From positions 1 to 64,000 of the forward strand of contig JAOPTX010000034.1 of the NCBI GenBank assembly GCA_051532055.1: a stretch of 64,000 nucleotides of DNA. Direction: 5' to 3'. The notes under the pieces are model-generated. The model saw only the letters and a program-made list of their open reading frames with translations, made no database searches and was not told the origin of the DNA. Below are positions 5,777 to 43,994 of this stretch, piece by piece (the stretch's first letter is position 1; every line of letters starts with the position of its first letter). Both the position numbers and the translations under genes were made by a program. Origin of the DNA: Fibrobacterales bacterium. Its GTDB lineage: Bacteria; Fibrobacterota; Fibrobacteria; Fibrobacterales; JAOPTW01.

Positions 5777-6069
5777 TGCGAAAAAAGCAAACAATGCACC
5801 CCGTTTCGGGAATAATAGGCAAAGTTCTTAAAGACCCTGCATTTTCTGGGGTAAAATCTGACACTCTCGTTAGAGACAACTGGAGTCGTATTTTAGGGCC
5901 TCAATTAAGCGCGTCCATAGCCTTTATTGGACTTCAAGGTGAGACTATTTTGATTTCTGGCAGTTCTACAGCGAGCAAAAATGAGTTTATATTTATGCAA
6001 TCCGATATACTGGATAAAATCAGAGTCCTTATTGCACCAACAGAGGTAAACGCCTTCAAATTTTTCTAA
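5773..6069 (+). CDS. dciA: DUF721/DciA family helicase loader
   Basis: About 98 aa, W..ILG..L pattern, in the canonical slot between recF and gyrB, overlapping the recF stop. Confidence 0.6.
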   Translation: MMRKKQTMHPVSGIIGKVLKDPAFSGVKSDTLVRDNWSRILGPQLSASIAFIGLQGETILISGSSTASKNEFIFMQSDILDKIRVLIAPTEVNAFKFF

Positions 6070-6199
6070 GGGAAACCAATCCATTCGCCCCCAGTCAGCT
6101 CCCATTTTAGGGCAAAAAATGGTGATTTAATGGTAATTTCCAGTTAGATTCACGCCAATTTTTACTACTTTTAGATGGTCTTAGTTTTAAGGATTTTAG

Positions 6200-8134
6200 A
6201 TGTCTCAAGAAAATTATAGTGGAAGTAATATCAGTGTTCTCGAAGGGCTTGAAGCAGTTCGAAAACGTCCGGCTATGTACATTGGATCAACCGACGGCCG
6301 CGGCATTCACCACCTTGTGTGGGAAGTTGTCGACAACTCGGTGGACGAAGCCCTTGCAGGATTCTGTACCGATATCGATGTAGTCATAACCAAAGAAAAT
6401 GGTATTACTGTCCGAGATAATGGACGAGGAATCCCTACAGACTATCACCCTACTGAAAAAATGGGCACACTCGAAGTAGTGATGACTAAACTACACGCTG
6501 GTGGTAAATTTGATAGTGACACCTATAAAGTGTCTGCTGGACTCCACGGTGTGGGTGTCAGTTGTGTCAATGCACTCTCAGCACATGTTATCGTTGATGT
6601 ACACCGCGGTGGAAAAATTGTACACCAAGAATTTAGAAGAGGTGAACCACAAGGTGATCAAGTCGAACTTGGCGAAACGGACCTCAACGGAACCCACCTT
6701 ACCTTTTTCCCTGACCCAGAAATTTTTACAGAGCTTGAATTTCACTTTGATACTCTCGCTGCTCGCTTAAGAGAGCTTGCATTCCTCAATGACGGCCTTC
6801 GTTTTGTACTCACTGACCTTCGCGATGACGCTGCAGATGAAGAAGGAAACCCACGTACAGAAAACTTTTATTACCCAGGTGGCATCGCTGCATTTGTTGA
6901 GTATCTTGACCAAAATAAAAAACCTCTCTTTGAGAAACCTATACACATCATGAAAGAAGAGGGCGCGTGTCCTGTTGAGATCGCACTTCAATACAATGAG
7001 TCTTACCAAGAAAACCTCATGTCTTTTGTAAATAACGTGAATACCCACGAAGGGGGAACACACGTATCAGGTTTTAAAGCAGCTCTTACTCGTGCTATTA
7101 ATAAATTTGCTGGCGACCACCTTGCTAAAGGGAAAAAAGATGTCAGCCTTACCGGTGAAGACATCCGAGAGGGACTCACTGTAATCATCTCTATTAAATT
7201 AGCTGAGCCACAGTTTGAAGGTCAAACCAAACGTAAACTTGGTAATGCTGAAGTGAAAGGACTTGTTGAACAAGTTACTGGAGATATGCTCAACGAACTT
7301 TTTGAAGAGCAACCGGCCATCATTAAAAAAATAGTAGAAAAAGTATACTATGCTGCAATCGCTCGCGAAGCAGCTCGTAAAGCAAAACAACTTGCACGAC
7401 GTAAAAATGTTCTCGAAGGCGGTGGCCTTCCAGGAAAACTTGCTGACTGTTCAAGTAGAAATGCAGAAATATGCGAACTCTTCATTGTGGAAGGTGACTC
7501 AGCGGGTGGATCGGCAAAACAGGGCCGTGATAGAGAATTCCAAGCAATTCTCCCTCTTAAGGGTAAAATCTTAAATGTTGAAAAATCTCGCATAGATAAA
7601 ATTCTGGGTAATGAAGAGATCAACACTATCATATCTGCACTTGGGTGTGGCATTGGCGATGAAGACTTCAATCTTGATAAACTTCGTTATCACAAAATTA
7701 TCATTATGACGGATGCTGACGTCGATGGATCACACATTCAAACACTGTTACTCACATTCTTTTTCCGCCACATGAGACCTCTCATAGAAACGGGTATGCT
7801 CTACATGGCACAACCACCACTCTATAAGATTAAGGCGGGACGATTTGAGAAATATGTCTATAGTGACGAAGAGAAAGATTCAGTAGTTGCAGAGCTTGGC
7901 GTAGATGTCAAAGGTTTGTATGTACAGCGGTACAAAGGTCTTGGTGAGATGAATCCTGAGCAACTTGCCAATACGACTATGGAACCAGATAGTCGTATGC
8001 TCAAACAGATTACCATGGAAGATTATGTCGCCACTGACTTAATCTTTACCATGCTTATGGGTGATGAAGTTCCCCCACGTAGAAAATTTATTGAAGATAA
8101 TGCGCATCTTATTCTTGATAAGATTGATGTTTAA
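6200..8134 (+). CDS. gyrB: DNA gyrase subunit B (short type, 644 aa)
   Basis: LEAVRKRPAMYIG, EVVDNSVDE, LHAGGKF, VEGDSAGGSAKQ, MTDADVDG, RYKGLGEMNP. Confidence 0.97.
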   Translation: MSQENYSGSNISVLEGLEAVRKRPAMYIGSTDGRGIHHLVWEVVDNSVDEALAGFCTDIDVVITKENGITVRDNGRGIPTDYHPTEKMGTLEVVMTKLHAGGKFDSDTYKVSAGLHGVGVSCVNALSAHVIVDVHRGGKIVHQEFRRGEPQGDQVELGETDLNGTHLTFFPDPEIFTELEFHFDTLAARLRELAFLNDGLRFVLTDLRDDAADEEGNPRTENFYYPGGIAAFVEYLDQNKKPLFEKPIHIMKEEGACPVEIALQYNESYQENLMSFVNNVNTHEGGTHVSGFKAALTRAINKFAGDHLAKGKKDVSLTGEDIREGLTVIISIKLAEPQFEGQTKRKLGNAEVKGLVEQVTGDMLNELFEEQPAIIKKIVEKVYYAAIAREAARKAKQLARRKNVLEGGGLPGKLADCSSRNAEICELFIVEGDSAGGSAKQGRDREFQAILPLKGKILNVEKSRIDKILGNEEINTIISALGCGIGDEDFNLDKLRYHKIIIMTDADVDGSHIQTLLLTFFFRHMRPLIETGMLYMAQPPLYKIKAGRFEKYVYSDEEKDSVVAELGVDVKGLYVQRYKGLGEMNPEQLANTTMEPDSRMLKQITMEDYVATDLIFTMLMGDEVPPRRKFIEDNAHLILDKIDV

Positions 8135-8176
8135 CAAAACCGCCGCTGGTTGAGATACCGGGGGCAAGTTGGAAAT

Positions 8177-9460
8177 ATGCCAAATAGAGTAATAATCGGT
8201 TCGCAATGGGGCGACGAAGGGAAAGCAAAAGTAGTAGACTTTCTCACATTTGAAGCAGATATCATTGTCCGCTTTCAAGGTGGTGCAAATGCAGGCCACA
8301 CAGTTTTAGTTGGGGATCAGGAATTTGTATTTCACCTCATTCCATCTGGGATCATGCATGAAGATAAAGTATGTGTCATCGGCAACGGTGTGGTACTCGA
8401 TCCAAAGCAAATGTTAATTGAACTGGAAGATATCAGACAAAAAGGTATCAATCCAGATGGTCGATTCAAAATTGCAGATAATGCCCATGTGGTCCTCCCC
8501 TTTCATACCAAACTCGACCAATTAAAAGAGATCGCAGCTGGTAAAAATGCCATCGGAACAACCGGACGTGGCATTGGTCCTTGTTATAGTGACAAAGTAA
8601 ACCGCCTTGGTCTTCGTGTGGGAGAGCTTCTGGACAAAGAAGGTCTTGCTGAAAAAATTAATGCTATTGCAGATGTAAAAAATGAGCAGTTTAAAGTTCT
8701 GTATAACGCAGAACCACTCGACCCGGCAGCAATTGTCGAAGAGTATTATGACTATGGTCAACAACTCAAAGCATTTATTTGCGATACCAGTACCTACCTC
8801 AACCAAGAGTGGAAAAAAGGTGGACAAATCATTTTTGAAGGTGCACAAGGTACTATTCTTGACGTGGACCATGGCACATACCCTTATGTAACTTCATCAA
8901 ATACAGTATCAGGTTCTGCATGTTGCGGTTCTGGGATTGGCCCTACTGCTATTGACCAGGTTATTGGAGTTGTAAAGGCCTATACAACACGTGTAGGTAA
9001 TGGACCATTCCCAACAGAGCTCAATGATGATAATGGACAACGTCTTGGTGAAATTGGACATGAATTTGGTGCAACGACTGGTAGACAACGTCGCTGTGGT
9101 TGGTTTGATGCTCCCGTTGTAAGAAAAGCAGCTCAAATCAATGGCTTAACTCATCTTGCTATCACTAAACTCGATGTACTTGACACATTTGATACTATTA
9201 AAATATGTACAGACTACGAATTAGACGGTGAAACACTCACTGTGATGCCAAACCAACTCACTAAAGTATCACTGGCTAAACCAGTATATATAGAGGTTGA
9301 AGGGTGGAACTGCGACACAACAGAATGTAAAACCTGGGATGCGTTACCCGAGAATGCAAAGAAGTATCTCGTAACCCTTTCAGAACTCATAGATGTAAAA
9401 ATTGGTATGGTCTCTGTCGGTCCGCGCCGTGATCAGAGCATTACTGTAGACCTTAAATAA
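8177..9460 (+). CDS. purA: adenylosuccinate synthetase
   Basis: QWGDEGKAK, GGANAGHT, GATTGRQRRCGW, TKLDVLD. Start moved to ATG 8177 (MPNRVII). Confidence 0.97.
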   Translation: MPNRVIIGSQWGDEGKAKVVDFLTFEADIIVRFQGGANAGHTVLVGDQEFVFHLIPSGIMHEDKVCVIGNGVVLDPKQMLIELEDIRQKGINPDGRFKIADNAHVVLPFHTKLDQLKEIAAGKNAIGTTGRGIGPCYSDKVNRLGLRVGELLDKEGLAEKINAIADVKNEQFKVLYNAEPLDPAAIVEEYYDYGQQLKAFICDTSTYLNQEWKKGGQIIFEGAQGTILDVDHGTYPYVTSSNTVSGSACCGSGIGPTAIDQVIGVVKAYTTRVGNGPFPTELNDDNGQRLGEIGHEFGATTGRQRRCGWFDAPVVRKAAQINGLTHLAITKLDVLDTFDTIKICTDYELDGETLTVMPNQLTKVSLAKPVYIEVEGWNCDTTECKTWDALPENAKKYLVTLSELIDVKIGMVSVGPRRDQSITVDLK

Positions 9461-9470
9461 AGAGGCGTAC

Positions 9471-10166
9471 ATGATTAAAGACAAGCTGGAACTACTCAAA
9501 GGGGTCGATCTTTTTTCGTCCCTTGATAATGCACAGCTCGCACTAATTTCCGAATTGGTGCTTTCACGATCATATAAGAAAGACGAGAATATCATTCTTG
9601 AGGATGACTCTGAAGATCAAGCTCTTTTTATTATTGTAGATGGAGACGTCAAAGTCTACATCTCAGGGCTTGATGGCAGGGAAACCATTCTCGCAATGCT
9701 TGGTACAGGAGACTTTTTTGGTGAGATGTCCCTTATTGATGGTGAACCACGGTCCGCATCGGTTAAGTCTGTCACTAATACTGAGATTCTTGTGCTCCGC
9801 CGTTCTGACTTTAGAGAAGAGATGGTAAAATTTCCTGATCTCGCAATGTCACTTCTCGAGGAGATGTCGCGTCGATTAAGAAAATCAAACAAACAAGTTG
9901 GTTCTCTTTCACTCATGACGGTATATGGTCGTATAGCAGCGACAATTCTAAACCTTATGGAAGAGAAAGGTGTACGAATACATGCCCAAAATGGCCAAAT
10001 GATAGTAGCGATTAAGAACAAGCCAACTCAACAGCAACTTGCCGAAATGTCAGGTACCACTCGTGAAAGTGTTTCTCGAGTATTAAAAACCCTTCAGAAG
10101 AAAGGTTGCATAAGTGTTGCCGGTAAAGATCTGCTTATTTTACAAGAAGAAGAATTGAGATCATAG
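9471..10166 (+). CDS. crp: Crp/Fnr-family regulator, cAMP-receptor type
   Basis: cNMP pocket FFGEMSL...PRSASV; HTH TQQQLAEMSGTTRESVSR with the R-E-x-x-x-R recognition helix; no FNR Cys cluster. Confidence 0.85.
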   Translation: MIKDKLELLKGVDLFSSLDNAQLALISELVLSRSYKKDENIILEDDSEDQALFIIVDGDVKVYISGLDGRETILAMLGTGDFFGEMSLIDGEPRSASVKSVTNTEILVLRRSDFREEMVKFPDLAMSLLEEMSRRLRKSNKQVGSLSLMTVYGRIAATILNLMEEKGVRIHAQNGQMIVAIKNKPTQQQLAEMSGTTRESVSRVLKTLQKKGCISVAGKDLLILQEEELRS

Positions 10167-10903
10167 TGAACAGAAAAATAATACGTGATATAGTTTACGG
10201 AGCTGGATTTTGGTCTATACTTATCGTCATTGGCTTCATTATTATAAACAGCATAATAATGCCTTATGTATCCGGGCAGTATAAAGAAACTGTTTTTGTT
10301 CCAGATGTCACCGGCCTTACTGCTGATGAAGCAGAGGCGCTCTTACATTCAAAGGGTCTCAAATTTTCTTGGCACAGTGAAGGGCAATACTCTGCAACAA
10401 TAGCCAAGGGTGCAGTAATGCTACAGACGCCTATTGCTGATAAAAAAGTTAAAGAAAACCGCACTATCTCACTCAAAGTCAGTAAAGGCCTTAGAGAAGT
10501 AATAATCCCAGAGCTCAGGGGTAAATCTCGAAGACAAGCTGAAATATCTCTTCACCAGCTGGGTCTAAAGGTTGGTGAAACTGTTCGAAGCTCACATTCA
10601 CTCATCCCTTGGGGAGTTATAATTAGAACTGAACCCTCCTCACGTTCGCTCATAACAATCGGTTCGCAAGTTAATCTTGTAGTATCAGCTGCACGAAAAT
10701 CGGGTACACGAGTATTACCAAACGTTATTGGCCTCTCATATCATAAGGCTCAACAAATTCTCGATTCTCTTGAGTTTACTGTCGGCGATACAACGATTAT
10801 CTCTGATACAACAAAACTACCCCATACTATTGTTAATCAACAGCCGCGCTCCGGAGAATACCTCAAAAAGAATACTCAAATACACTTAACCATTGCCCAA
10901 TAA
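10166..10903 (+). CDS. membrane-anchored protein with three PASTA domains and no kinase domain
   Basis: N-terminal TM, then VPDVTGLT, IPELRGKS and LPNVIGLS repeats with Q.P..G motifs. GTG start overlaps the crp stop. Confidence 0.88.
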   Translation: MNRKIIRDIVYGAGFWSILIVIGFIIINSIIMPYVSGQYKETVFVPDVTGLTADEAEALLHSKGLKFSWHSEGQYSATIAKGAVMLQTPIADKKVKENRTISLKVSKGLREVIIPELRGKSRRQAEISLHQLGLKVGETVRSSHSLIPWGVIIRTEPSSRSLITIGSQVNLVVSAARKSGTRVLPNVIGLSYHKAQQILDSLEFTVGDTTIISDTTKLPHTIVNQQPRSGEYLKKNTQIHLTIAQ

Positions 10904-12690
10904 TGAAACTATTCAATTATATTGCACTGTGCATAGCCTTAGCAACAGTAACTACTACTGCCGCCCCACAAGCCCTTACCGGCGATGAGAATACAATTGG
11001 GATATCCAGTTTAACTGGACGCCAAAATAGAGTCATTGCATCAAAATATTTTATTCGAGGCCTCCACTATAATAATATTGATAGACCCGATTTCGCGTCT
11101 CTCTTTTATGAAAAGGCATACCAATACGACACCTCTAGTACTTTTCTGATTTTAGAACTCGCTAAGCTCTATGCTCAACAGAGTCAATATCTCAAATCCT
11201 TAGAAACGTACACCAAAGCTTATGCAAATCTTAAAAACCCAACATCATCGCAAGAACAATTTTACGGATATCTCTATCAGTTCAACAACAAAACTGATTC
11301 AGCAAAAATTCATTACAGCCTCTCAATACAAAAAGACTCAAGCAATGTTGAAGCACTGTATCAATACTCAATTATTCTTGAGGAAACCAAAAGTTATGAT
11401 GAATTAAGAGCTATTTACTCACTCTTTATTCCACAAATACAATTCCCAGAAAACTATGTTGAACGACTCTCACTCCTCAACACTATTTACGGAGACTCAA
11501 CGGCAAATGTATCTCTATACACTGAAGCATGGGAACAAACAGGTACTGAGTCATTTGGATTTCAACTAGCAAACCTCCTTTCAAAGCAAGGGAACAACGA
11601 AAAGAGTATCGAAATATTAATAGACCTTATTGGGCTAAATCCAGAAAATAAAAACGCCCTTTACGAGACGAGTCGTATCTACATAGAAAATGGAGATTTT
11701 TCTAGTGCAGCCCCATATCTCTATAAACTCTATGCCCTCGACACTACTAACATAACCTACCTACAGAAGCTAGCACAATTAGAATATGAAATTAACGACC
11801 TTGACTCTTCACTTAAACATTTTAAAATAGTAACTGAAAAAGACCCTAAAAACGACCTTTCGTTCTACTATATGAGTTCAATATACGCAGTTTCAAAAGA
11901 CCTCGAAAATGCAATATCTAACATTGAGAAATCAATTTCCCTTAAGCCAAGTTCACTCCTCTACAAGAATCATCTAGCGACACTGTACTATACCGACAAA
12001 CAATGGAACGCTGGTTTTGTAATTATCGACACCCTTATAGCTCAAAACCCTGACAAGCTCAGACCTCTTGAATATAAAATTAGTGCACTGAAATACAAAA
12101 TTCTTTCACTCACAGAAGAGCCAAGAAATGATACCCTCATAGCCCCCTTAAAAGAAGAGATCATTTCATTACTCCTATCCATTCACAAAAGTGACCCTCT
12201 AAATACGGATTTACTTTTTGAAATTGCAGCAAGCTTTGAGCGAATTAAAAAGTTTGAACAGTGTGAGCAATACTTCAGCAAGCTTCTGGCCCTAGATTCT
12301 AACAACCATGCCGCAATGAACTACCTAGGCTACACTCTCATTGAACAAAATATAGATCTGCCGAGGGGTAATGCTCTTATCGATAAAGCACTCTCATTTG
12401 AACCGAAGAACATTGCGTATCTCGACTCTAAAATATGGTACTACTATCTTGAAGGGAACTATAAAAAAGCGCTCGAATACATCAACAGAGTCCCTAAAGG
12501 TTCTGTACACGATGAGATCATTTTTGAACATTTTGCTCAAGTCTACCACAAACTCTCTTTGATTGATAAAGAAAAAGAGTGTTGGATTGAGGTACTCTCT
12601 ATAGCTCCAGAAAGTAAAAATGCACATCACTTTTTTATTCAAAATAAAATTCCCCTACCAAAAAATACTGCCCCATTAAAAGACCAATAA
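10903..12690 (+). CDS. exported tetratricopeptide-repeat protein
   Basis: Signal peptide, many TPR-like helices, C-terminal AMNYLGY...AL..EP.N.AYLDS motif. Confidence 0.85.
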   Translation: MKLFNYIALCIALATVTTTAAPQALTGDENTIGISSLTGRQNRVIASKYFIRGLHYNNIDRPDFASLFYEKAYQYDTSSTFLILELAKLYAQQSQYLKSLETYTKAYANLKNPTSSQEQFYGYLYQFNNKTDSAKIHYSLSIQKDSSNVEALYQYSIILEETKSYDELRAIYSLFIPQIQFPENYVERLSLLNTIYGDSTANVSLYTEAWEQTGTESFGFQLANLLSKQGNNEKSIEILIDLIGLNPENKNALYETSRIYIENGDFSSAAPYLYKLYALDTTNITYLQKLAQLEYEINDLDSSLKHFKIVTEKDPKNDLSFYYMSSIYAVSKDLENAISNIEKSISLKPSSLLYKNHLATLYYTDKQWNAGFVIIDTLIAQNPDKLRPLEYKISALKYKILSLTEEPRNDTLIAPLKEEIISLLLSIHKSDPLNTDLLFEIAASFERIKKFEQCEQYFSKLLALDSNNHAAMNYLGYTLIEQNIDLPRGNALIDKALSFEPKNIAYLDSKIWYYYLEGNYKKALEYINRVPKGSVHDEIIFEHFAQVYHKLSLIDKEKECWIEVLSIAPESKNAHHFFIQNKIPLPKNTAPLKDQ

Positions 12691-12692
12691 TT

Positions 12693-13418
12693 ATGGTAAA
12701 AATATGGCATTACTTCCTATCACTAATATTACTCATGGTCATTAACGCCTGTGCTCCTTCACACCCAAAGATAGAACACTATCTTACAGGAATATCACAA
12801 GAAGTACCGCCGTTTATTAAAGCAAAGTTTTCACTAACAATAGTCTCACAAGGTGAAAATAATTCCATTGATGCTGTCGCATTACTCGTTCCAAATGAAC
12901 GCTATAGAATCGAGTTTTATGGCCCCCTGGGTATTCATGTCGGATCTTTTCTCTGGAAAAAAGATCAATGGCAGCTATACATCCCCGATGAAGAAAAGGT
13001 TATGATAGGCTCTGGCCCCATTATCGCAATCCCTAATATCCCGGCAATTGACGTACATATACTCATGGGACTCTTTTGGAATCAACTTCTCCCAGAGGGC
13101 TGGAATACAGCAGGTAGCGAAAGAAATGGTGATCATCAAATTCTCACTTGGTCAAATAACGGATACCAACATTCAGCAACCATTAATCAAAATAACGGAG
13201 AAGTAGTCAACACACAGGCAGAATACAATGGAGCAAGGGAATCAATACACTATACTGATTACACTCAGGTAGCATCATATATTATCCCAAAAACTACTCG
13301 ACATTCATTATCAAATGGGTCATCACTTACAATACATCTTTCAACTATTAATCTTTCTAAAAAAGAGAAAGAAAAGTATTGGACTCTCAAGTTACCAGAA
13401 AATGTAACAATCAATTAA
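12693..13418 (+). CDS. LolB/DUF4292-like lipoprotein
   Basis: Lipobox INAC, RIEFYGPLG motif, position directly after a TPR gene. Confidence 0.6.
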   Translation: MVKIWHYFLSLILLMVINACAPSHPKIEHYLTGISQEVPPFIKAKFSLTIVSQGENNSIDAVALLVPNERYRIEFYGPLGIHVGSFLWKKDQWQLYIPDEEKVMIGSGPIIAIPNIPAIDVHILMGLFWNQLLPEGWNTAGSERNGDHQILTWSNNGYQHSATINQNNGEVVNTQAEYNGARESIHYTDYTQVASYIIPKTTRHSLSNGSSLTIHLSTINLSKKEKEKYWTLKLPENVTIN

Positions 13419-34644: not shown

Positions 34645-37203
34645 ATGGCATCAAAAATTGACTTATTTGCCCAACGCTATATCGCATTTGCTGAAAGATT
34701 TCGCTTTCTCATTATTTTTATAGCCTTAATTTTGTTTGCTGCAACGGGTTACTACACGTTTAACAACTTAAAAATAAACAACGACCTGTCAGTGCTGCTC
34801 CCCCAAGACACCCCTTCGGTACTCGCACTCAACGAATCCAATGAGCGTTTTGGAAGCTCTGACAAATTCATTATCGTTATTCAAAATGAAGATCCTCAAT
34901 ACGTTGCAACTCTTCAAAAGAAAGTGAAAGAGATTATCGACACTGAGTGGAATGACATAGCCATCAGTTCAAACTACGAACGTGACAACTCATTTTTTGT
35001 AGACCATGCACTTCTCTATCTCCCTGTCCCACATCTTGAGCGCATTCGCGATAACCTTGAGACAATACAGGGCCGTATGGGCCGCAAAGCTGGACCGCTT
35101 ATTGTTAATCTTTTTGAAGACTCTGAAGAAGATGAAGAAGAACTTGTATGGTTTGACGCATCACTCCCCGATGAACTTGGCCTACCCGACGAAGCGGCAA
35201 CAGCCTTTGAAGGGTACTATAACACTGATGAAAAAAAGAGAAAACAAGAAGCGGGAGAAGAAATTGTCCCTGACTACGACCCTAAAGCAGAACTCCCAAC
35301 CGAACTTAAAACTCATCTTCTTGCAAAATCAAAAGGTGAAACAGTCTTCAATGGACTGGTACTGGTAAAACTCAATCAACCACCAACAAACATTAACTTC
35401 ACTACGGAAGTACTAGCGAAGGCAAGCACCCTTATTGATTCAATGACAGTGAAAAATCCAGGAATTCGCATGTCAGTTGAAGGATCATACGAAGGCCTCA
35501 AACAAGTTAAAGAGATGAAAAGCGACGGCATAACCTCTGCCATTATATCAATTCTCCTAATCTTCGGACTAGTCATCTTCTTTTTCAGAAGCTTTCTTTC
35601 AGCCCTCCTCCTCCTTGCACAGGTCTCTTTTGCTTCGGGCATCATGCTCTTTTTTACCACTATTGTTTATGGAGAACTCAATAACTACACGCTTTTTGTC
35701 GCAGCTATCATTCTCGGCATGGGTATCGATTTCTCTATTCATGTTATGGGTAATGTACAGCGATTTCAAAATGACCACCCCACTCTAAATGCTGCACTCG
35801 CCAATACCATCTCACATTTACTCTATCCCATGTTTCTCGCTGCACTTACAACGGTAGCCGGAATGCTTACACTCCTCATTGCTGAGTTTAATGGTTTTTA
35901 CGAATTTGGTGTTATTACTGCGACAGGGATTGCCCTCAGCTTTATTACAGCAATATTAGGGCTACCGGTGCTCGTCATGACTTTTGGCGGCCTCAATAAG
36001 CGTAAACCAACATCATTCTTCCCGAGCCACTGGGGTGATTCTCAGGTGGCTGCATTTATGAAAAAAGCAGCCATCACCGTTATAATCTTGACCGCTGTTC
36101 TCGCTATCTTTATTCCTTATGCAGAGTTTGAAAATGACTTTCGAAACCTCCGACCTAAAAAGAGTACAGAGAAAGTAGAAGAAAGCAAACCACGGTTTCG
36201 CTATGGCGACGCAATGTCTTCAAAGCGCAAATCGTCTCAACCCGCTGCGGTACTTGGTGATTCACGAGAAGACCTCGACAGACTCTATGACACTCTCATG
36301 GTCCGGAAAAACATTTCCAAAGACCCGTACCTTAAAAGCTTTCTCACTCTTAAAACATTCGTCCCTGAAGAAGGTGAGCAAGAGGACCGAATGGAGATGG
36401 TGGAAGAAATTGCAGAACTCATCAATGCACGCGCATTCAGCAAAGTAACGGGTGAAGATTCAGCAATGGTTGTGAAGCTTCGTGGCATGGTCGATGTCTC
36501 AGAATTTACTGCAAAGGACATTCCTGAATGGGCTATTGATGCCCTTAAAGAAAAAGATGGCTCTATTGGATCAATTGGTTTTATCTATGGTAAATACAAT
36601 AGCTGGGATGCAAACGACATGAAAGTATTTCAGGATAAATACGCCCATTGGAACTTCGGCAACAAAGACTTGCGAGTATTCTCATCCGCCTTTATTACAG
36701 CTGATGTTATTGAAGCAGTAAAAAGTGACAGTTTCAAGATGGCTATTTTCATCAGTATAGTCATCTTTCTTACACTCAGCTTATCACTCCGCAATACGAC
36801 AATGGTCATTATTAGCTTTTGTTCTCTTGGCTTTGGCGCCCTATGGACTATGGGACTCATGGGACTCACCAATAGTGCAATAGATTTGGGCAAGGTATGT
36901 ATTTTTAATGTGATAGTTATCCCCACCGCCCTTGGAGTCGGTATTGATTCTACTATACATCTCCTTGTAGCATTTGTGAAACATCGTGATGATGGCATTA
37001 AAACTATAATGGATACAACGGGAAAGATGGTAATCGCCTCATCACTTACAACCATTGCGGGCTTTGTTGGAGTGCTCTTTATCAATCATAGAGGCATGCG
37101 TACCATTGGCGAGCTTGCTGTAATTGGCATCATTGCTGCACTCATTACTTCGCTCTGTATCACCCCCTATCTTTCACATAAGTTTTTAGGCAAAAAGAAC
37201 TAG
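34645..37203 (+). CDS. MMPL/RND (HpnN-like) lipid transporter
   Basis: Two TM bundles with GMGIDFSIH and GVGIDSTIH, LTTVAG and LTTIAGF, and large periplasmic loops. Confidence 0.88.
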   Translation: MASKIDLFAQRYIAFAERFRFLIIFIALILFAATGYYTFNNLKINNDLSVLLPQDTPSVLALNESNERFGSSDKFIIVIQNEDPQYVATLQKKVKEIIDTEWNDIAISSNYERDNSFFVDHALLYLPVPHLERIRDNLETIQGRMGRKAGPLIVNLFEDSEEDEEELVWFDASLPDELGLPDEAATAFEGYYNTDEKKRKQEAGEEIVPDYDPKAELPTELKTHLLAKSKGETVFNGLVLVKLNQPPTNINFTTEVLAKASTLIDSMTVKNPGIRMSVEGSYEGLKQVKEMKSDGITSAIISILLIFGLVIFFFRSFLSALLLLAQVSFASGIMLFFTTIVYGELNNYTLFVAAIILGMGIDFSIHVMGNVQRFQNDHPTLNAALANTISHLLYPMFLAALTTVAGMLTLLIAEFNGFYEFGVITATGIALSFITAILGLPVLVMTFGGLNKRKPTSFFPSHWGDSQVAAFMKKAAITVIILTAVLAIFIPYAEFENDFRNLRPKKSTEKVEESKPRFRYGDAMSSKRKSSQPAAVLGDSREDLDRLYDTLMVRKNISKDPYLKSFLTLKTFVPEEGEQEDRMEMVEEIAELINARAFSKVTGEDSAMVVKLRGMVDVSEFTAKDIPEWAIDALKEKDGSIGSIGFIYGKYNSWDANDMKVFQDKYAHWNFGNKDLRVFSSAFITADVIEAVKSDSFKMAIFISIVIFLTLSLSLRNTTMVIISFCSLGFGALWTMGLMGLTNSAIDLGKVCIFNVIVIPTALGVGIDSTIHLLVAFVKHRDDGIKTIMDTTGKMVIASSLTTIAGFVGVLFINHRGMRTIGELAVIGIIAALITSLCITPYLSHKFLGKKN

Positions 37204-37266
37204 ATAATAATTCTGAATGACATCTATGATGGGAGTGATTCACTCTCTACATAGATTGACTCTTTG

Positions 37267-37821
37267 CTATACACTAATCAAAAGAGAAGCAAAAACCATT
37301 AACCATTGCAACACCCATGTTGTAGTGTCTGATTTTAATGCCTCAAAAAATGTTCTTTCAGGTGCCCCTTCTGAATATCCAGAAATTCCAGCAAAATACC
37401 GCGGCGTTTCACGAGCCCATTCATAATACATTTTAGAAAATTTCTCTTTGAGATATTCTTCTTCAATAGCAATCAACACTTTGTGATGCCAGACAAAGAG
37501 CAGAAAAATAACAACAACTCCAACCCCCCATATATTAAGTAAAAGAATAAGTCCTAAGCCGAAAAGTATATTCGATACGTACAGTGGATTACGCGATAAT
37601 GAATAAGGACCATTCTTTTGTAACAACGGTGCCTGTAACTGAGTTCCTCTACTATGCCCCCCAATGTAGGTACGCGACCAATTACGAATAAATTGAGAAA
37701 CCATAATTACACCAAGTGCGTAGGTATTGAGCTTATTATCAATATTCGCACCAATGTACCCTAAAGAGAGCAATAGGATAATTGGAGGAAGGCCTCGTAG
37801 TCTATAATAAAGGTTTTTCAT
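37267..37821 (-). CDS. ICMT/PEMT-family membrane methyltransferase
   Basis: GPYSLSRNPLY, EEEYL..KF...Y......PRY, several TM segments. Confidence 0.82.
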   Translation of the reverse strand: MKNLYYRLRGLPPIILLLSLGYIGANIDNKLNTYALGVIMVSQFIRNWSRTYIGGHSRGTQLQAPLLQKNGPYSLSRNPLYVSNILFGLGLILLLNIWGVGVVVIFLLFVWHHKVLIAIEEEYLKEKFSKMYYEWARETPRYFAGISGYSEGAPERTFFEALKSDTTTWVLQWLMVFASLLISV

Positions 37822-39442
37822 TCAAATTTATTCGAAAACAGCCAGTTAACTGATCAAGGGGTTCATGAGATACTATAATAATAGCTTTTTTATGGGCAAT
37901 GCAAAAATTTATCAGCACTGAAAGGAGGTTTAGTCGCTCACCAGCAGGGAGATATGACGTTGGCTCATCCAAAAGAAGCATTTGTGCCTGAGAAAAAGCT
38001 ACAATTCCCAAAGCCAATCGTTGACGCTGTCCCCCCGAAAGCTCAAATCCTAGGCTATCAAGCCCCTTCAACCCCCTATTATTTAATTTTTTTAGTATCG
38101 ACTCTATTCCTAAGGCCGTATAAAGATCCCTATCTTGTTGACACGTCAATTCAAATGAATACCCATTGAGTGATATAAAGGGGATCATCGGATCCTGATC
38201 TAAATATCCTATCATGGAAGGTGAAGCGGGGAGCTGGCACACTCCAGAAACTGGAATTTCAAGCCCTGAGCATAATTTCAACAGAGTTGATTTACCCGAC
38301 CCATTGTCACCTGACACCAACACAGGGGCACCCAGTGGAATCGTTAAACTCACCCTATTAAAGAGTGGCTCTGATTGATAAGAAAATACCACATCACTCA
38401 AAACAATACTAGCGTCAGACAACTCGAATGGAAGTATCTCTTGTTCTTGACTCAAGAGTTTTCGTACTCGACCCCATGTGATCTGAGCATCTTTATAGAG
38501 TGGCACAAGTCGCGCAAATTCTTTCACTGGTTTATAGAGCAAAAAAAGACATGCAAGATAGAGTATAACGTCGCTTGGTGTTATAGAGCCAGCAAGTATA
38601 AACCAACCCACCACTGAGAATACAAATACAGTCCCTACATTTGCTACAAATTCAGACCCCCCATAAATCAGGCTCTTCTTCTGGATGACCACAGTATCTT
38701 TGTATGCCATTTCACCAATCATACCATGTAAGTCACTTTGCATGGTTCTAAGAGATCGAGCATCAGTCCACTGCTGAATAAGGGTGAGGTATTGGGTGAT
38801 ACGCCTATGCACCACCCCTCGATACTCTAAGAGTTGCTCAATAGGCCTATTAAGCACTGACAGCCTTCCTTGAACAAATGCAACAAAAGGTACAGCCACA
38901 AAAAGGATGATAGCCGTAAGCTCCCACGAGAGCCAAAACAGAAGGGGAACAAATAATGCGAGCTGTATCAGAGCGTGTACTCCATAAAAAACTGCCTCAG
39001 CCCCTTTCTCTAGTATGCGAAAATCAGCAGTAAAATGAAACGCCTCCTCATCACTTGTATGAGTCCTCAAAAAGCGATTCCCCAATCTTGAGTAGCAAAG
39101 AAGGAGTTGTTGCTGAAAGTACTTTTCAAAAACAATAAAGAATTTCCCAGAGCGCATCATCTTTAAAAAAGAAACTATCAACTTAATAAGAGCTACGAGG
39201 GTCATAATCCATATCCAGTGGATGAAATCACCAGGAGTACAGGTTATCCCCCAAAAAAGATTTATGGACTCACCAGTAACAATTGCCGAAAAGAGACGGA
39301 TACCTCCAAGAAGAGCAGCATCAAGCAAACTAGCGAGAAGAGTAAGAGCCACAATAACCACCACAGCACGAACTCGAAAGTTCACTAATGATCGAGCAAA
39401 AGCAGGATTTATCTCTTTTTTAAGGTGTAATTGGGCACTCAT
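37802..39442 (-). CDS. ABC exporter, fused permease and ATPase (MsbA-like architecture)
   Basis: N-terminal TM domain; GDNGSGKST, LSGGQRQR, LLLDEPT, VSH. Confidence 0.85.
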   Translation of the reverse strand: MSAQLHLKKEINPAFARSLVNFRVRAVVVIVALTLLASLLDAALLGGIRLFSAIVTGESINLFWGITCTPGDFIHWIWIMTLVALIKLIVSFLKMMRSGKFFIVFEKYFQQQLLLCYSRLGNRFLRTHTSDEEAFHFTADFRILEKGAEAVFYGVHALIQLALFVPLLFWLSWELTAIILFVAVPFVAFVQGRLSVLNRPIEQLLEYRGVVHRRITQYLTLIQQWTDARSLRTMQSDLHGMIGEMAYKDTVVIQKKSLIYGGSEFVANVGTVFVFSVVGWFILAGSITPSDVILYLACLFLLYKPVKEFARLVPLYKDAQITWGRVRKLLSQEQEILPFELSDASIVLSDVVFSYQSEPLFNRVSLTIPLGAPVLVSGDNGSGKSTLLKLCSGLEIPVSGVCQLPASPSMIGYLDQDPMIPFISLNGYSFELTCQQDRDLYTALGIESILKKLNNRGLKGLDSLGFELSGGQRQRLALGIVAFSQAQMLLLDEPTSYLPAGERLNLLSVLINFCIAHKKAIIIVSHEPLDQLTGCFRINLNEKPLL

Positions 39443-39581
39443 TTGTTCAAATGTAGCTATTTGACTTTCTACAAACCATATTTCACCTTTTTTATCATTT
39501 TTTCATTTTTTTTAACCCCTTCTCTTTACACTAATTTCAGAAATACTTATCTTTAGCCTCGTTCTGAAAGGGACACCCTAA

Positions 39582-39654
39582 GCTCCCATCGTCTAGAGGC
39601 CTAGGACTCATGGTTTTCATCCATGCAACAGGAGTTCAAATCTCCTTGGGAGTA
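39582..39654 (+). tRNA. tRNA-Glu (anticodon TTC), CCA not encoded
   Basis: Acceptor stem GCTCCCA/TGGGAGT plus discriminator A; anticodon arm CATGG-TTTTCAT-CCATG; T arm AGGAG-TTCAAAT-CTCCT. Confidence 0.95.
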
Positions 39655-39657
39655 TTG

Positions 39658-39700
39658 AAAAGGATCTTAGCCTTATGGCTAAGATCCTTTTTTCGTTTTT
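39658..39700 (+). terminator. intrinsic terminator after tRNA-Glu (possibly bidirectional)
   Basis: AAAAGGATCTTAGCC-ttat-GGCTAAGATCCTTTT followed by a T-rich tail. Confidence 0.85.
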
Positions 39701-39770
39701 TCAAATCTACTTGGCAATCCCGACTCCCCAACAGCAAAAAAAAGTGACGATGCATATCTTTTATAAAGTA

Positions 39771-41237
39771 TTAAATATTAAAATCAATCCTTGGATTCCA
39801 AAATTCATTAGGAGGGGTCTTGATATTATTTTTGCAACGCTCCACATAAATCGTCAGCACCTTATCCGAACCGCAATCATTTAAACACTTTTCGAAAATC
39901 GATAATGCCATATCCCATTTATGGTTTCGATACAACCCCAAACCGACATGAAATTCATCCAGTATGCGTAACAATTTATTTTGCCGCTCTACGGGATTAC
40001 CTTCAATAACTTCAAAAATAATTTCCGGCTGCGACTTCCCCTTAACCACCACCATATCCAACTCTCTAAAGTGATATTCTGAGCCTGCACCCACTCCACC
40101 TTTTATTGCTGAAGAAACAATAATGCCCACGCCATAATAAGATGTTAGTGACTCTAATCGAGCCCCTACATTTACAACATCCCCCAATACCGTTGAATCC
40201 ATTCTATCACTACTCCCAACCGTACCAATTACAACTTCCCCTGTATGAAGCCCAACTCCCACATTAAAAAGCTCCGTCTCATGATGCTCCGCCCACTGAT
40301 TATACCGCCATTGAGCCTTTTGAATCATTATTGCCGAATCAAGCGCATTTTTAATACCGCCGCCTGTATCCCCATCAAACAAAGCCATAATCTCATCCCC
40401 AATAAACTTGTCCACAAATCCATTATAATTATGAATAATTGAACTCATTTTTTGAAAGTGAATATTCAACTGGTCAAGAAGCTCTTGAGGAGGGTAACGC
40501 TCTGATATTGTTGTGAAGTTTCTGATATCTGAAAAGAGTACGGTAAGAATCTCTGTCTTTGCTTTTCCAAATTCAATAGTTGAAATATCTCCATTAGCAA
40601 TTTTTGAGATAAACTGCTTCGGCACAAATTTCTCGAAAATGATTGTTAACTCCGATATTTTTTCAGACTCTGCAAGCCGTATCTTTGTCTGCTTCAACTC
40701 ATTAAACGTGTATTTACTTATAGATTGCACCCCTGCTAATGCATACATCAAAAAATATGAAGCCAAATTAATAATTAATACCCTCTTCAAAAGTTCACCA
40801 TCCAGATGCCCGAGCTCGAACAATACTCCTACTGCCACCCCTACGCCTAATGGATATAAAATAAGCGCCCATTTTGGCTGTGCAATCAGACCATATATCA
40901 CTGTCGACAAAACTAAAGAGACCCCCCAATACACATTTGCGTTATTCATAATAAGAAAAATATTAAACATTATTGGGAGTGTTATCGCAAAAGAAAGCTC
41001 AAAGTAACGCTTCACAGCCGTTGAATAAAATCCTTTTTTCAATATAAAAACATAGGATCCATAAATTGCTATTGCAGCGAGACGCAGATATACATTTTCC
41101 CAATAATCAGTCAGATACTCAAGAATAAAATAAAAGCCAATATGCCCGAAAAACCCCGTAAGAAATATGAACTTCATTAAATGCTGATGAAGTGAATAAT
41201 CTTCATAAGCCAAAATCAACTTTATCTTTTTAAACAT
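39771..41237 (-). CDS. class III adenylate cyclase with CqsS/LqsS-like 6-TM sensor anchor and C-terminal TPR-like extension
   Basis: Cyclase motifs LFSDIRNFT, DKFIGD, GLHTGEV, DSTVLGDVVNVGARLE. N-terminal 6 TM with YFILEY..WENVYLR, LP..F...LIMNN...YWGVS. Start is either ATG 41237 or the upstream in-frame start at 41291. Confidence 0.88.
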   Translation of the reverse strand: MFKKIKLILAYEDYSLHQHLMKFIFLTGFFGHIGFYFILEYLTDYWENVYLRLAAIAIYGSYVFILKKGFYSTAVKRYFELSFAITLPIMFNIFLIMNNANVYWGVSLVLSTVIYGLIAQPKWALILYPLGVGVAVGVLFELGHLDGELLKRVLIINLASYFLMYALAGVQSISKYTFNELKQTKIRLAESEKISELTIIFEKFVPKQFISKIANGDISTIEFGKAKTEILTVLFSDIRNFTTISERYPPQELLDQLNIHFQKMSSIIHNYNGFVDKFIGDEIMALFDGDTGGGIKNALDSAIMIQKAQWRYNQWAEHHETELFNVGVGLHTGEVVIGTVGSSDRMDSTVLGDVVNVGARLESLTSYYGVGIIVSSAIKGGVGAGSEYHFRELDMVVVKGKSQPEIIFEVIEGNPVERQNKLLRILDEFHVGLGLYRNHKWDMALSIFEKCLNDCGSDKVLTIYVERCKNNIKTPPNEFWNPRIDFNI

Positions 41238-41436
41238 TAGCACTATTGAGCTAAATATTTTTTGAGTATTTCGGAATGCCACCATGTACACAACATCAAA
41301 TTGTTTCTCTGACTATACCATAATAAATACCGAATTGCTAAAAATTGGTAGGAAGTTCCAACGGTAAGCCTAATGATGAAGGTGTGCGAAAAAAAAGCGC
41401 TTCTCGATTACTCATTATAATTCACGCAAGTCCAGA

Positions 41437-42165
41437 TTAACCTTCTGCATCTTCAGCCCCCTGATAGACCCCTTTGAGCATATGCCACTTAGGGCCAAAT
41501 CCATCCACTCTCTTAAGCTTAAAATTATTTGACCGTAACGCACGCTTCACCACACCCGCCGCAGTAAACGTTGCAATTGTTGAACCTTTTTTAGATTTTT
41601 GACCAATAGCCTCATATACAGAGTCAGACCACATATCTGGATTTTTTTTAGGATCAAACCCATCAAGATACCACGCATCTACTTCATCGGGGATGTCCTC
41701 CAAGCAATCAGCAACATCAGAAAAGATCAGTGTTAATTTTACTTTCCCATCGTCAAAATACAGTTCATATTTACCCGGCGCACAATCTGGGTAGACTTTA
41801 AGAAATTCATTTGAGAGTTCTTTGAGTTCACCCCATCGTTCAAGAATTGTGATTAAATCCTCTTTTCCAATGGGGAATTTTTCCATAGAAATAAAATGAA
41901 GTGGAGCAGTGGCTGTTTTACGCCATAAATCCCATGTTGCCAAAAAGTTGAGGCCCGTTCCAAAACCGAACTCAGTCACAACAAAGGGTTCAACACCAAT
42001 CCACCTTTCAATAAGGTCATTATGTTTTAGGAAAACATACCGCGACTCTTCGAGCCCATCTTTAATAGAATAGTATACATCATCAAAGGAATTTGAGATA
42101 AGTCGCCCCCCTTCTTCAAGGAGAAGATCAGGCTTTTCAATTGAATATTCTGAACGGTCAGTCAT
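41437..42165 (-). CDS. mnmD: stand-alone tRNA mnm5(s2)U34 methyltransferase (MnmC N-terminal domain)
   Basis: FDDVYYS, EFGFGTGLNFL, WYLDGFDPKKNPDMW, TFTAAGVV; no FAD oxidase domain. GAAGGAAG SD. Confidence 0.9.
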   Translation of the reverse strand: MTDRSEYSIEKPDLLLEEGGRLISNSFDDVYYSIKDGLEESRYVFLKHNDLIERWIGVEPFVVTEFGFGTGLNFLATWDLWRKTATAPLHFISMEKFPIGKEDLITILERWGELKELSNEFLKVYPDCAPGKYELYFDDGKVKLTLIFSDVADCLEDIPDEVDAWYLDGFDPKKNPDMWSDSVYEAIGQKSKKGSTIATFTAAGVVKRALRSNNFKLKRVDGFGPKWHMLKGVYQGAEDAEG

Positions 42166-42185
42166 ATTTTATCTTCCTTCGAGCA

Positions 42186-42219
42186 TGTGAACCTTATCAC
42201 ACTTGTGATAAACAACACA
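42186..42219. promoter_or_regulatory. tandem CRP-type boxes in the mnmD / small-ORF divergent promoter
   Basis: TGTGA-acctta-TCACA (42186-42201, perfect core) and TGTGA-taaaca-ACACA (42204-42219); TATAAT at 42241-42246. Confidence 0.65.
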
Positions 42220-42276
42220 CACAAATGGAATTGAATTTTGTATAATCACTAGTATAGATTTAACAAGCGCCTCAGT

Positions 42277-42510
42277 ATGAAACCGCTCACGACTAAATAT
42301 AAAAACATTGAGTATCTCAGCAAGAAGAGCTATCGCGATTTCAACAACTTTAGCTCGACACTAAAAAAAGAGATCGACTTTCTTATCGAACACCCTAAAG
42401 GGCATGTCCATATAAAACAGAAAACGTCTGAGCCCACCTACTCACCCATGTGGGCTTTTGTTGTTGCCGCCATCCCACTCGTTGCGATTATCGTCTTATC
42501 ACAACAATAA
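42277..42510 (+). CDS. small hypothetical protein with C-terminal TM helix
   Basis: 77 aa ending MWAFVVAAIPLVAIIVL; has its own promoter-like signals and a downstream terminator. Confidence 0.6.
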   Translation: MKPLTTKYKNIEYLSKKSYRDFNNFSSTLKKEIDFLIEHPKGHVHIKQKTSEPTYSPMWAFVVAAIPLVAIIVLSQQ

Positions 42511-42526
42511 CCTTTTGATTATATAA

Positions 42527-42572
42527 ATAGAAAGAGCCTCGTCCAAAAGACGAGGCTCTTTCTATAAAAAAA
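42527..42572. terminator. bidirectional intrinsic terminator
   Basis: ATAGAAAGAGCCTCGTC-caaaa-GACGAGGCTCTTTCTAT plus an A-run, between the convergent small ORF and folA. Confidence 0.85.
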
Positions 42573-42595
42573 TGTGTATAGTTCTTTTTTTTAAA

Positions 42596-43090
42596 TCAGA
42601 TATCACGTTCAAAGTTTACGAACGAATATTCACATTCATCTTTTTCACTCTTGGGAAAGGGACCATCACGATACACCTCTTTCCACCCATCACCAAGGTT
42701 GGTTAAGAATATATCTGCTTCAAATGATTGATGTACTTCCGTCAGATAGAGCTTTCCACAATAAGGAAGAGCCATATCATAGATCTGAGCCCCACCAATA
42801 ATAAACGCTTCACTTTCACCATTATCTTTAGCAACCTGGATCGCCTCATCTAGGGAATGAACAACAACACACCCTTCAGCCCTATAATCCTTTTGTCGTG
42901 TTATAATAACCGTTGTTCTATTGGGGAGTGGTCGTCCAATATCCTCATAATTTTTTCGACCAGTAATAATATGATGACCCGTCGTAATCTCTTTAAAGCG
43001 TTTCAAATCTTTAGAGAGGCGCCAAATGAGCGAATTATCTTTGCCAATAGCTCCGTTCTCCGCTATTGCCACAATCGTTGAGAGAATCAT
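42596..43090 (-). CDS. folA: dihydrofolate reductase
   Basis: [35 protein letters not shown]; overlaps the thyA stop. Confidence 0.95.
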
Positions 43091-43881
43091 ATAGCAACAG
43101 CACCTTTAATATGGGGGTGCGACTCATATCCGATGAGCTCAAAGTCATCGAAAGTGAAATCAAAAATGTCCATAATTTCCGGGTTGATTTTCATTTGGGG
43201 CAGAGGCTTTAGGTCACGACTCAATTGAAGCTCCACCTGCTCAAAGTGGTTCGTATAAATATGCGCATCACCAATAGTATGCACAAAATCTCCCACTTCA
43301 AGTCCACATACCTGAGCTACCATCATAGTGAGAAGGGCATAGGATGCAATATTAAAGGGGACACCGAGAAAGGTATCTGCAGATCGTTGATAGAGCTGAC
43401 ATGAAAGTTTACCGCTTGCCACATAAAACTGAAAAAACATGTGACACGGGGGGAGCGCCATATTGGGGATCTCAGCAACATTCCAAGCATTGACGATAAG
43501 ACGACGAGAATCAGGATTGCTTTTAATCTGTTCAATCACATCAGAAATCTGATCAATAGTTTCACCGTTGGCACCTTTCCATGAACGCCATTGCACTCCA
43601 TAGACTGGACCCAGATCACCATTTTCATCCGCCCACTCATTCCAAATACGTACCCCATTATCTTGGAGATACTTGATATTTGAATCACCCTTAAGAAACC
43701 AGAGCAGCTCATGCACAATTGATTTAAGGTGGAGCTTTTTAGTAGTCACCATTGGGAATCCTTGAGAGAGATCAAAACGCATTTGATGCCCAAAGACACT
43801 AACGGTTCCGGTACCGGTTCGGTCCTCTTTTTTCGCGCCTTCATCAAGAATTCTCTGAACTAAATCTAAATACTGTTTCAT
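43087..43881 (-). CDS. thyA: thymidylate synthase
   Basis: [43 protein letters not shown]. Start moved to ATG 43881 (MKQYLDL, 264 aa). Confidence 0.97.
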
Positions 43882-43994
43882 TTGGAGTCCTATTATTGAT
43901 AAAATCGTAAACACGCTACGACTCATACATAATTTTACAGATTATTTGGAAATGTAAAAAAAATCAGATCCCTGAATTCAGAATTCTCAATTTT

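Follow-up and report, generated by a model that had tools for sequence, protein, structure and literature searches.

In the quorum-sensing kinases CqsS (Vibrio), LqsS and LqsT (Legionella) and JqsS (Janthinobacterium/Duganella), the sensor is a module of about 175 amino acids (aa) with six short transmembrane (TM) helices, and excerpts of PMC3376566 describe a sensor kinase of this kind as adjoining a CqsA/LqsA synthase. Here we describe a gene in which a homologous module is naturally joined to an adenylate cyclase. It lies in a 64,000-nucleotide stretch of a Fibrobacterales bacterium (assembly GCA_051532055.1, contig JAOPTX010000034.1, positions 1 to 64,000), referred to below as the window, and occupies 39771–41237 on the minus strand, stop codon included; its translation is a putative six-TM receptor-cyclase of 488 aa. 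An initial annotation of this DNA, made from the sequence alone, had read the gene as a natural CqsS/LqsS-type receptor fused to a cyclase and responding to an alpha-hydroxyketone (AHK)-like signal; the amino acid strings that it cited are all present in the translation.

The role of the six-helix membrane domains in class III adenylate cyclases is a long-standing question, which excerpts of a 2025 review (PMC12414865) term a 'blind spot', with proof of principle coming from synthetic CqsS-cyclase chimeras alone. In the engineered CqsS-Rv1625c and CqsS-AC2 chimeras (Beltz et al. 2016, PMC4821796, with later work cited in PMC12414865, both in excerpt), as in the window protein, a six-TM module is joined to a class III cyclase near the exit of TM6. 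The text of PMC4821796 available in part places the CqsS to Rv1625c junction at RSEELL (CyaG)/RSEALL (Rv1625c) and reports stimulation of the chimera by CAI-1, so that coupling of such a receptor to a cyclase is feasible; the engineered coupling cited in the initial annotation is thereby borne out. The same excerpts give a survey of 1616 six-TM modules in which the CqsS cluster stands apart from the cyclase anchors with local weak links only, and they describe no natural CqsS-cyclase fusion. A full-text literature search for CqsS or CqsA together with adenylate cyclase likewise returned no report of a natural fusion within the library searched. The window protein differs from the CqsS-Rv1625c chimera in being natural and in having a class IIIb-type catalytic domain.

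The N-terminal part of the protein is a CqsS/LqsS-like six-helix membrane sensor module (residues 15–170; 40728–41195, minus strand), delimited by hydropathy, an AlphaFold2 model and the profile comparisons given below. Hydropathy shows six hydrophobic segments (residues 23–39, 51–67, 79–98, 104–120, 122–145 and 149–170), and AlphaFold2, run on an alignment of 28 rows, gives a six-helix bundle with a mean pLDDT of 96.1 and a pTM of 0.89; both accord with an N-terminal module of six short TM helices and about 175 aa. In the model, which spans residues 1–195, TM6 runs on into the linker as one long helix (147–194). This cytoplasmic helical linker (residues 171–226; 40560–40727, minus strand; placed by the model and by alignments to PDB sequences) contains the element FEKFVP at 201–206, and is followed by the catalytic domain (residues 227–405; 40023–40559, minus strand) and by a C-terminal extension of 83 aa (residues 406–488; 39774–40022, minus strand) to which Pfam assigns no family.

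Pfam finds one domain in the whole protein, PF00211 at residues 227–405 (E 5e-20, 72.3 bits against a cut-off of 21.9), and no HisKA or HATPase_c output; a class III cyclase in place of these is where the protein differs from the CqsS, LqsS and JqsS kinases. All six catalytic residues (the metal-binding D237 and D281, the substrate Lys K277, T349 where class IIIa has Asp, and N356 and R360 of the transition state) are kept in a single chain, as in cyclases of the homodimer type. Their distances from one another (K+4=D, T+7=N and N+4=R) are likewise canonical, with Rv1625c numbering as the reference for positions and spacing. D300 and R376 of that numbering are named in the excerpted text of PMC4821796. 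Among proteins of solved structure, those nearest in sequence belong to class IIIb, namely OaPAC (5x4t, E 1e-26), bPAC (5mbh, E 5e-26) and Pseudomonas aeruginosa CyaB (3r5g, E 2e-24). These alignments begin at residues 192–194, in the helix with FEKFVP that precedes the catalytic core, and from there onwards the protein aligns with the handle region of the photoactivated cyclases; the likeness to CyaB, OaPAC and bPAC thus covers the catalytic domain and its preceding helix, and the window's sensor is neither a MASE nor a BLUF domain. An intact class IIIb cyclase had been proposed in the initial annotation, and the PF00211 match and the D-K-D-T-N-R residues bear this out: judged by them, the domain is an intact class IIIb type and is predicted to form cyclic AMP (cAMP).

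The sensor module itself has no match in Pfam, NCBIfam or among PDB sequences, and a profile of the module and its relatives (A1, the window module plus 27 of the best phmmer hits, the same 28 rows as above) finds nothing at E<=10 among PDB sequences, and hence no sequence similarity to the anchors of mycobacterial Rv1625c/Cya or of the mammalian membrane cyclases, which the protein otherwise resembles in its order of six-TM module, helical linker and class III domain. NCBIfam gives no match to any of the 28 modules. A better match to a generic MASE anchor, which the initial annotation had named as a result that would count against it, was not found: the Pfam MASE models give no family at E<=10 for the window module and 0/28 matches at the curated threshold among the family members, one of which matches MASE8 at E 0.0012. 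A language-model protein atlas offers only unspecific neighbors, consisting of hypothetical proteins and MASE2/6/7/8/11 clusters. Foldseek with the sensor model returns nothing from the PDB at E<=0.001. With VIA-align the highest ranks are P. aeruginosa ImcA (Z 11.5), bovine AC9 residues 97–326 (Z 11.3, root-mean-square deviation 4.3, 180 aa) and human AC5 residues 211–424 (Z 10.2), all three covering the whole model and followed by a row with Z 8.2; values of Z below about 13 may, for helical bundles, reflect a common arrangement only, and these ranks of a predicted structure, of a size that such bundles can also attain by chance, are suggestive of a design shared by the anchors of cyclases and the modules of the CqsS type. 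The NCBIfam accessions tried beside the Vibrio LuxN and LuxQ models yielded none for the CqsS sensor; they stand for LuxO, LuxU, a xylanase/esterase and a small family without relation to it.

The module is shared by proteins with a variety of outputs. With residues 1–200 as query, HMMER retrieved 74 proteins at E<=1e-3 from 1.84 billion representatives, of which 34 reach E<=1e-10, and 67 were scanned with Pfam (set aside were the copy of the protein in the database, four fragments no longer than 205 aa, a protein of 5690 aa and a low-complexity match). Histidine kinases account for 31/67, many of them HisKA-HATPase-REC hybrids, and class III cyclases for 11; eight carry GGDEF, three SpoIIE/PP2C and one Hpt only, with no output detected in the remaining 13. 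We regard the sensor as portable because the same module is found with kinase, Hpt, cyclase, GGDEF and SpoIIE/PP2C outputs. The alignment A1 shows R52, P88, F91, N98 and W104 as invariant, Y14, F35, L39 and Y103 as nearly so, and S107 as at least 70% conserved, with the family motifs G..GH..FY, YWE..LR, LP.(M/F)F and N..N.YW..S. Kinase relatives, 27 in number, match generic kinase-core families alone in NCBIfam, and none of the cluster names of 30 representatives says CqsS; where organisms are given in these names, they are Methylococcales, Bacteroidota, Flammeovirgaceae, Leptospiraceae, Planctomycetota and Pseudomonadota. Word-index searches with the N-terminus recover the protein itself only, and with the A1 profile and longer lengths seven proteins, one of them a hybrid kinase of Coxiellaceae (E 1.5e-8). 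A tblastn search of plasmids with the sensor gave no match at E<=1.

The relationship to quorum-sensing receptors was assessed through gene context, CqsS/LqsS-type sensors being defined not by name but as those of kinases encoded beside a curated CqsA/LqsA-family synthase, i.e. one matching NF005526, the NCBIfam model 'alpha-hydroxyketone-type quorum-sensing autoinducer synthase'. In five named genomes A1 has one match, a 434-aa kinase of Pseudoduganella ginsengisoli (E 1.6e-13), and finds nothing at E<=10 in the four others. The divergently transcribed neighbor of this kinase is a synthase with 550.7 bits on NF005526 (cut-off 428); against the structures of V. cholerae CqsA it reaches E 1.7e-102, and against the next enzyme family about 1e-37. 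The other neighbor, the following gene, matches PDB entry 6sy9 'Response regulator' (E 6.5e-41), presumably Legionella LqsR. With the Pseudoduganella synthase as query, a sample of 400 genomes from the same class yielded an orthologue in 12, and the 11 new strong ones among these lie above the NF005526 cut-off (482–593 bits). At ten of these 11 gammaproteobacterial loci the N-terminus of the adjacent kinase is matched by A1 (E 2e-16 to 1e-8), and the remaining locus is cut off by the end of its contig 306 bp beyond the synthase; with Pseudoduganella included, A1 matches the sensor of 11 of 12 synthase-adjacent kinases.

These 11 synthase-linked sensor modules were aligned (A3) and compared with A1 by hhalign, which relates the two with a probability of 99.4% (E 3e-21) along 151 columns covering all six helices; controls with A3 reversed and with five column-shuffled versions reach at most 0.4%. 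A direct BLASTP comparison of the window module with the Pseudoduganella kinase shows 24% identity over 153 aa (E 4e-7). The match that the initial annotation had drawn between the N-terminal domain and CqsS is in this way far beyond chance, and homology of the window's sensor to CqsS/LqsS-type sensors is well supported by the profile comparisons. The shared motifs run through the module: G..GH..FY of the window family corresponds to G..GFPLFY of the synthase-linked kinases, YWE(S/N)..LR to PQPYENL.LR, LP.FF to LPFFF, and N..N.YW..S to N.....VW.MS, giving for CqsS, LqsS and JqsS together with the window family the common forms G..G(H/F)..(F/L)Y, Y(W)E..LR, LP.FF and N......W..S. A Trp/Ser pair at 104 and 107, counted from the ATG at 41237, had also been noted; W104 and S107 are found there, at the start of TM4 (codons 104 to 107, 40917–40928, minus strand), and they align with the W-x-x-S of the synthase-linked kinases. 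In excerpts of PMC3376566, W104 and S107 of V. cholerae CqsS serve head-group discrimination, LqsS having Ser in place of the Trp, and TM6 of CqsS has the pattern F160/F162/F166/C170. The position of W104 varies among relatives of the window protein, with Ser in the same-genus orthologue and His or Tyr in some others. In TM6 the aromatic pair Y160 and F161 is kept, though the pattern as a whole is unlike that of V. cholerae CqsS, as had been noted from the sequence at the outset.

A tree of 66 sensor modules separates the 11 synthase-linked gammaproteobacterial kinases, as one clade (SH-aLRT 99), from all 55 modules of the window group, which form the other (SH-aLRT 99); this tree and the synthase tree below come from quick maximum-likelihood searches without bootstraps. 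On this phylogeny the window module is placed in a sister clade of the canonical CqsS/LqsS/JqsS kinases and is not a member of them. Of the proposal of a CqsS/LqsS-type receptor, the homologous sensor therefore stands, and the placement within the canonical CqsS/LqsS clade does not.

The fusion of this sensor to a cyclase is a recurrent family and not a one-off. The module occurs in 26 of 296 species genomes of the window's phylum, with a single copy in the window's own genome; an apparent paralogue there (L006) was rejected, as A1 finds only the one copy. Pfam scans of 27 of the phylum's open reading frames (ORFs) show PF00211 at E<=1e-6 in 19, kinases in four and no match in four; direct alignment reveals all six catalytic residues in three of the unmatched ORFs, and D-K-D-T-N-R is present in 31/32 aligned phylum proteins. 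Three metagenomic relatives (P0005, P0007 and P0019) have Asp at the substrate position and domains of the class IIIa type, the best PDB matches of P0005 being mammalian AC9, AC8 and AC5 and mycobacterial Cya. In these three the exit of TM6 runs into RSDELL, RSDSLL or RSEELL, and they share the RSEELL-type junction segment of the CqsS-Rv1625c chimera.

As in CqsS, LqsS and JqsS systems, relatives of the window protein are encoded beside an alpha-oxoamine synthase (AOS) gene. Up to about 7 kb on each side of every family gene of the phylum was searched for AOS with the Pseudoduganella synthase as query; the count covers 25 genomes, whose family genes no shorter than 200 aa number 38 (one 84–142 aa fragment in G005 was dropped). 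An AOS gene lies within 400 bp of 13 of the 38 family genes, in 13 of the 25 genomes and three family-level groups, and within 10 kb of seven more; leaving out the unpublished genome G253, which holds one of the 13 pairs, the count is 12/37 genes in 24 genomes. By a rough estimate from one to two AOS per several thousand genes, chance adjacency would be about 0.1% per gene. The 13 pairs span three partner types and three orientations (11 divergent, one on the same strand and one convergent). Nine of the adjacent partners are SPT-like, with serine palmitoyltransferase (SPT) models ranking top at 338–357 bits, below their cut-offs; one is PRK07505-like; and three, in G257, G262 and G288, are CqsA-like, as are partners located nearby in G247, G076 and G016. 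For the CqsA-like partners NF005526 is the top family at 257–305 bits, below its cut-off, and two of them have V. cholerae CqsA as the best PDB match (E 1e-53 and 2e-50). The AOS tree joins the CqsA-like group to canonical CqsA as its sister (SH-aLRT 98), with the SPT-like group and the genome's BioF outside. The CqsA-like partners point to hydroxy- or amino-ketones as candidate products and the SPT-like ones to longer, sphingoid-type amino-ketones. Since SPT-like enzymes outnumber CqsA-like ones among the partner synthases, an AHK is not required as ligand, which qualifies the initial proposal of a natural receptor-cyclase for an AHK-like signal; the natural fusion with a homologous sensor stands.

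Several of these loci have further genes in common arrangement. In G076 (L143, G076:C5:46000-64000; 5781–12789, minus strand) the six-TM cyclase is followed by genes for an AMP-binding acyl ligase, a radical-SAM protein, a CqsA-like synthase and a receiver-domain (REC) protein, and this apparent operon resembles a pathway for a lipid signal in one transcript with the receptor for it. At the f7-family loci L140, L141, L142, L173, L176, L180, L188 and L193 the cyclase-synthase pairs are flanked by conserved proteins of 222–238 aa, which consist of about 100 N-terminal aa without assignment and a C-terminal receiver domain; there is no kinase in the cluster, and one of these proteins, compared with the PDB, matches generic receiver domains only and not LqsR. 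Tandem receptor-cyclase genes with one synthase are present in four f7 genomes (L140 4927–8994, L173 5680–9985, L176 2181–6281 and L186 2–3412). At L144 (G288:C268, 291–4719) a hybrid histidine kinase with this sensor is convergent with, and 5 bp from, two tandem CqsA-like synthase genes, and by its gene content the locus is a kinase-type cassette inside the window's phylum.

The window's locus lacks such a partner. No CqsA/LqsA-type synthase is found in the window or the 94%-complete genome with NF005526 and a JqsA protein query, and none of the window genes flanking the cyclase is a signal synthase. The sole AOS of the genome is BioF (432 bits against a cut-off of 426, with BioF and Kbl as the best PDB matches), and we therefore regard the window copy as an orphan; the absence of cqsA/lqsA from the window, remarked on in the initial annotation, is confirmed and extended to the genome. 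In this the window differs from the Cqs and Lqs systems, as do its relatives, whose synthases are either SPT-like or CqsA-like below the curated cut-off. A CqsA/LqsA-like synthase, below that cut-off, is present in the genome or cluster of G257, G262, G288, G247 and G076.

A genome of the same genus (G238; L146, G238:C29:32000-50000) is collinear with the window, and the flanking proteins are 85–97% identical. The cyclase is 52% identical to its orthologue overall, with 36% in the sensor, 65% in the linker, 72% in the catalytic domain and 34% in the C-terminus. G238 has an extra gene, between the tRNA and the cyclase and 139 bp downstream of the latter, coding for an SPT-like synthase (best PDB match SPT, E 1.6e-83). 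At the corresponding position the window has tRNA-Glu (39582–39654) and a hairpin (39657–39692) alone. The DNA of the two is similar as far as 39698, a little beyond tRNA-Glu, and again from 41436 onwards. There is no recent deletion scar, as tblastn finds no remnant of a synthase in the window's 328-bp gap. From the comparison of these congeners, the locus of the receptor (and synthase) is a hypervariable island beside a tRNA gene (window 39443–41436).

Taken as a whole, these features are probably best explained by a one-component membrane receptor-cyclase in which a lipid product of an AOS sets cAMP synthesis. Class III cyclases dimerise, and the protein would accordingly act as a homodimer. 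Within the membrane, a lipophilic product of an AOS (a lipid of the alpha-amino- or alpha-hydroxy-ketone type) would be the ligand of its 2x6TM sensor, and the conformational change would travel along the continuous TM6-linker helix to the class IIIb cyclase dimer. cAMP synthesis would then change, in either direction, and be read by the genome's many cyclic nucleotide monophosphate (cNMP)-binding proteins. In relatives the receptor-cyclase and synthase genes are paired as a synthase/receptor cassette, and the window's genome has lost the synthase or never had it, leaving an orphan that would respond, if at all, to the signal of other cells. The interpretation given in the initial annotation is in general supported, none of the computational tests named there having gone against it.

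Several observations weigh against this explanation. With the sensor in a sister clade, the class of ligand is not safely transferable from CqsS/LqsS. Most of the adjacent synthases are SPT-like and could serve membrane-lipid synthesis and not signaling, and 18 of the 38 family genes, the window's included, have no AOS in the stretch covered. Kin genomes are not independent of one another, and fewer separate events underlie the adjacencies than were counted. A kinase of Cyclobacteriaceae (P0020), the sole kinase of the module's own clade whose surroundings were read, has no synthase neighbor; used as query it returned 80 loci, with the module only at its own. Lastly, the genome is 94% complete, and a synthase on unassembled DNA is possible.

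The abundance of SPT-like partners (9/13) also suits a different function, in which the six-helix module senses an endogenous membrane lipid or intermediate, for instance one of sphingoid or ketosphinganine-like type made by the SPT-like neighbor, and cAMP serves as feedback on the envelope; in the window itself, genes for a PEMT-like methyltransferase and for transporters of the MMPL and ABC types lie nearby. Such a sensor of lipid homeostasis is an unlikely account of the gene, for the module is homologous to receptors of diffusible autoinducers, three of the adjacent partners are CqsA-like and belong to the sister group of true autoinducer synthases, and the genome, having neither an SPT-like nor a CqsA-like enzyme, would offer no endogenous product to sense. 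Moreover, the 36% identity of the sensor between congeners looks more like shifting ligand specificity than housekeeping. Divergence of this kind could also be seen as decay of a gene that is non-functional or drifting after loss of its partner, with the synthase missing here and present at the orthologous locus of the same genus, and with 52% identity to the orthologue against 85–97% in the flanks. This is very improbable in view of a frame open over 488 codons, the retention of all catalytic and family-invariant sensor residues, and a catalytic domain still 72% identical to that of G238.

A simple membrane anchor would need no ligand at all: the six helices would only tether and dimerise the enzyme, its activity being constitutive or set by the C-terminal extension or other partners. 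Excerpts of PMC12414865 credit no natural six-TM cyclase anchor with a known ligand, and the 83-aa extension has no assigned function. R52, N98, W104, P88 and F91 are, on the other hand, intramembrane positions, polar and aromatic residues among them, that are invariant in 28 sequences with four output domains, and this is therefore the signature of a sensor module swapped between outputs; together with the homology to ligand-binding receptors and the adjacency of synthases it makes a passive anchor rather improbable.

The receptor-cyclase explanation bears on the long-standing question raised at the outset, as this family carries, in nature, a sensor homologous to that of CqsS on intact cyclases, some of the IIIb and some of the IIIa type. 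In 13 genomes the putative receptor, the enzyme and a probable source of the ligand lie in one locus, which makes the hypothesis of anchors as receptors testable; the relatives that keep a synthase are the best test objects, and the window's orphan would be a natural specificity variant. If the explanation is right, cAMP is added as a direct output of CqsS-type signaling, with a ketone made by an AOS and a CqsS-like 2x6TM receptor directly setting cAMP, and the IIIa members with their RSEELL-type junction supply the missing natural precedent for hexahelical anchors as lipid receptors. The synthase-less and fast-diverged window copy would then be a receptor tuned to the signal of other cells. 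This broader picture, of a widespread one-component lipid-signal system that sets a precedent for cyclase anchors as lipid receptors and in which the window copy eavesdrops, we advance tentatively, as a possibility with somewhat less than even prospects.

The minus-strand ORF ending at 39771 has 488 codons from ATG 41237 and 506 from an in-frame GTG at 41291, and the protein's database copy, found by word-index search, starts at M21. A start at M21 would remove Y14, which is at least 90% conserved across the homologues in A1, so that the true start would lie upstream of M21, more likely at 41237 or further upstream. A consensus scan shows a promoter-like -35/-10 pair upstream of the ORF (TTAGCA, 18 nt, TG-TATAGT; 41312–41341, minus strand), with seven such sites found against 8.0 expected from shuffles, and so weak evidence for this pair. 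Beyond the 3' end of the cyclase gene, tRNA-Glu(UUC) (39582–39654) is on the plus strand, and the hairpin between them (39657–39692, no strand assigned) has 16 bp with T/A runs and could act as terminator of both convergent transcripts; the consensus scan that found it yields one hairpin against 1.1 expected.

The genome as a whole is rich in signaling proteins, with nine class III cyclase-domain matches in all, 112 receiver-domain-type matches to a LuxO model, and 15 cNMP-binding domains above the Pfam cut-off, one of them in the window at 9567–9824; by their domain type these fifteen could be readers of the cAMP. The genes downstream of the cyclase (34645–39442) code for an MMPL-family transporter (plus strand) and for a PEMT-like methyltransferase and an ABC transporter (minus strand). 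Upstream (41437–43926) are a Methyltransf_30 (MnmC-like) gene, an ORF that is dihydrofolate reductase-like by its translation, and a thymidylate synthase gene (PF00303).

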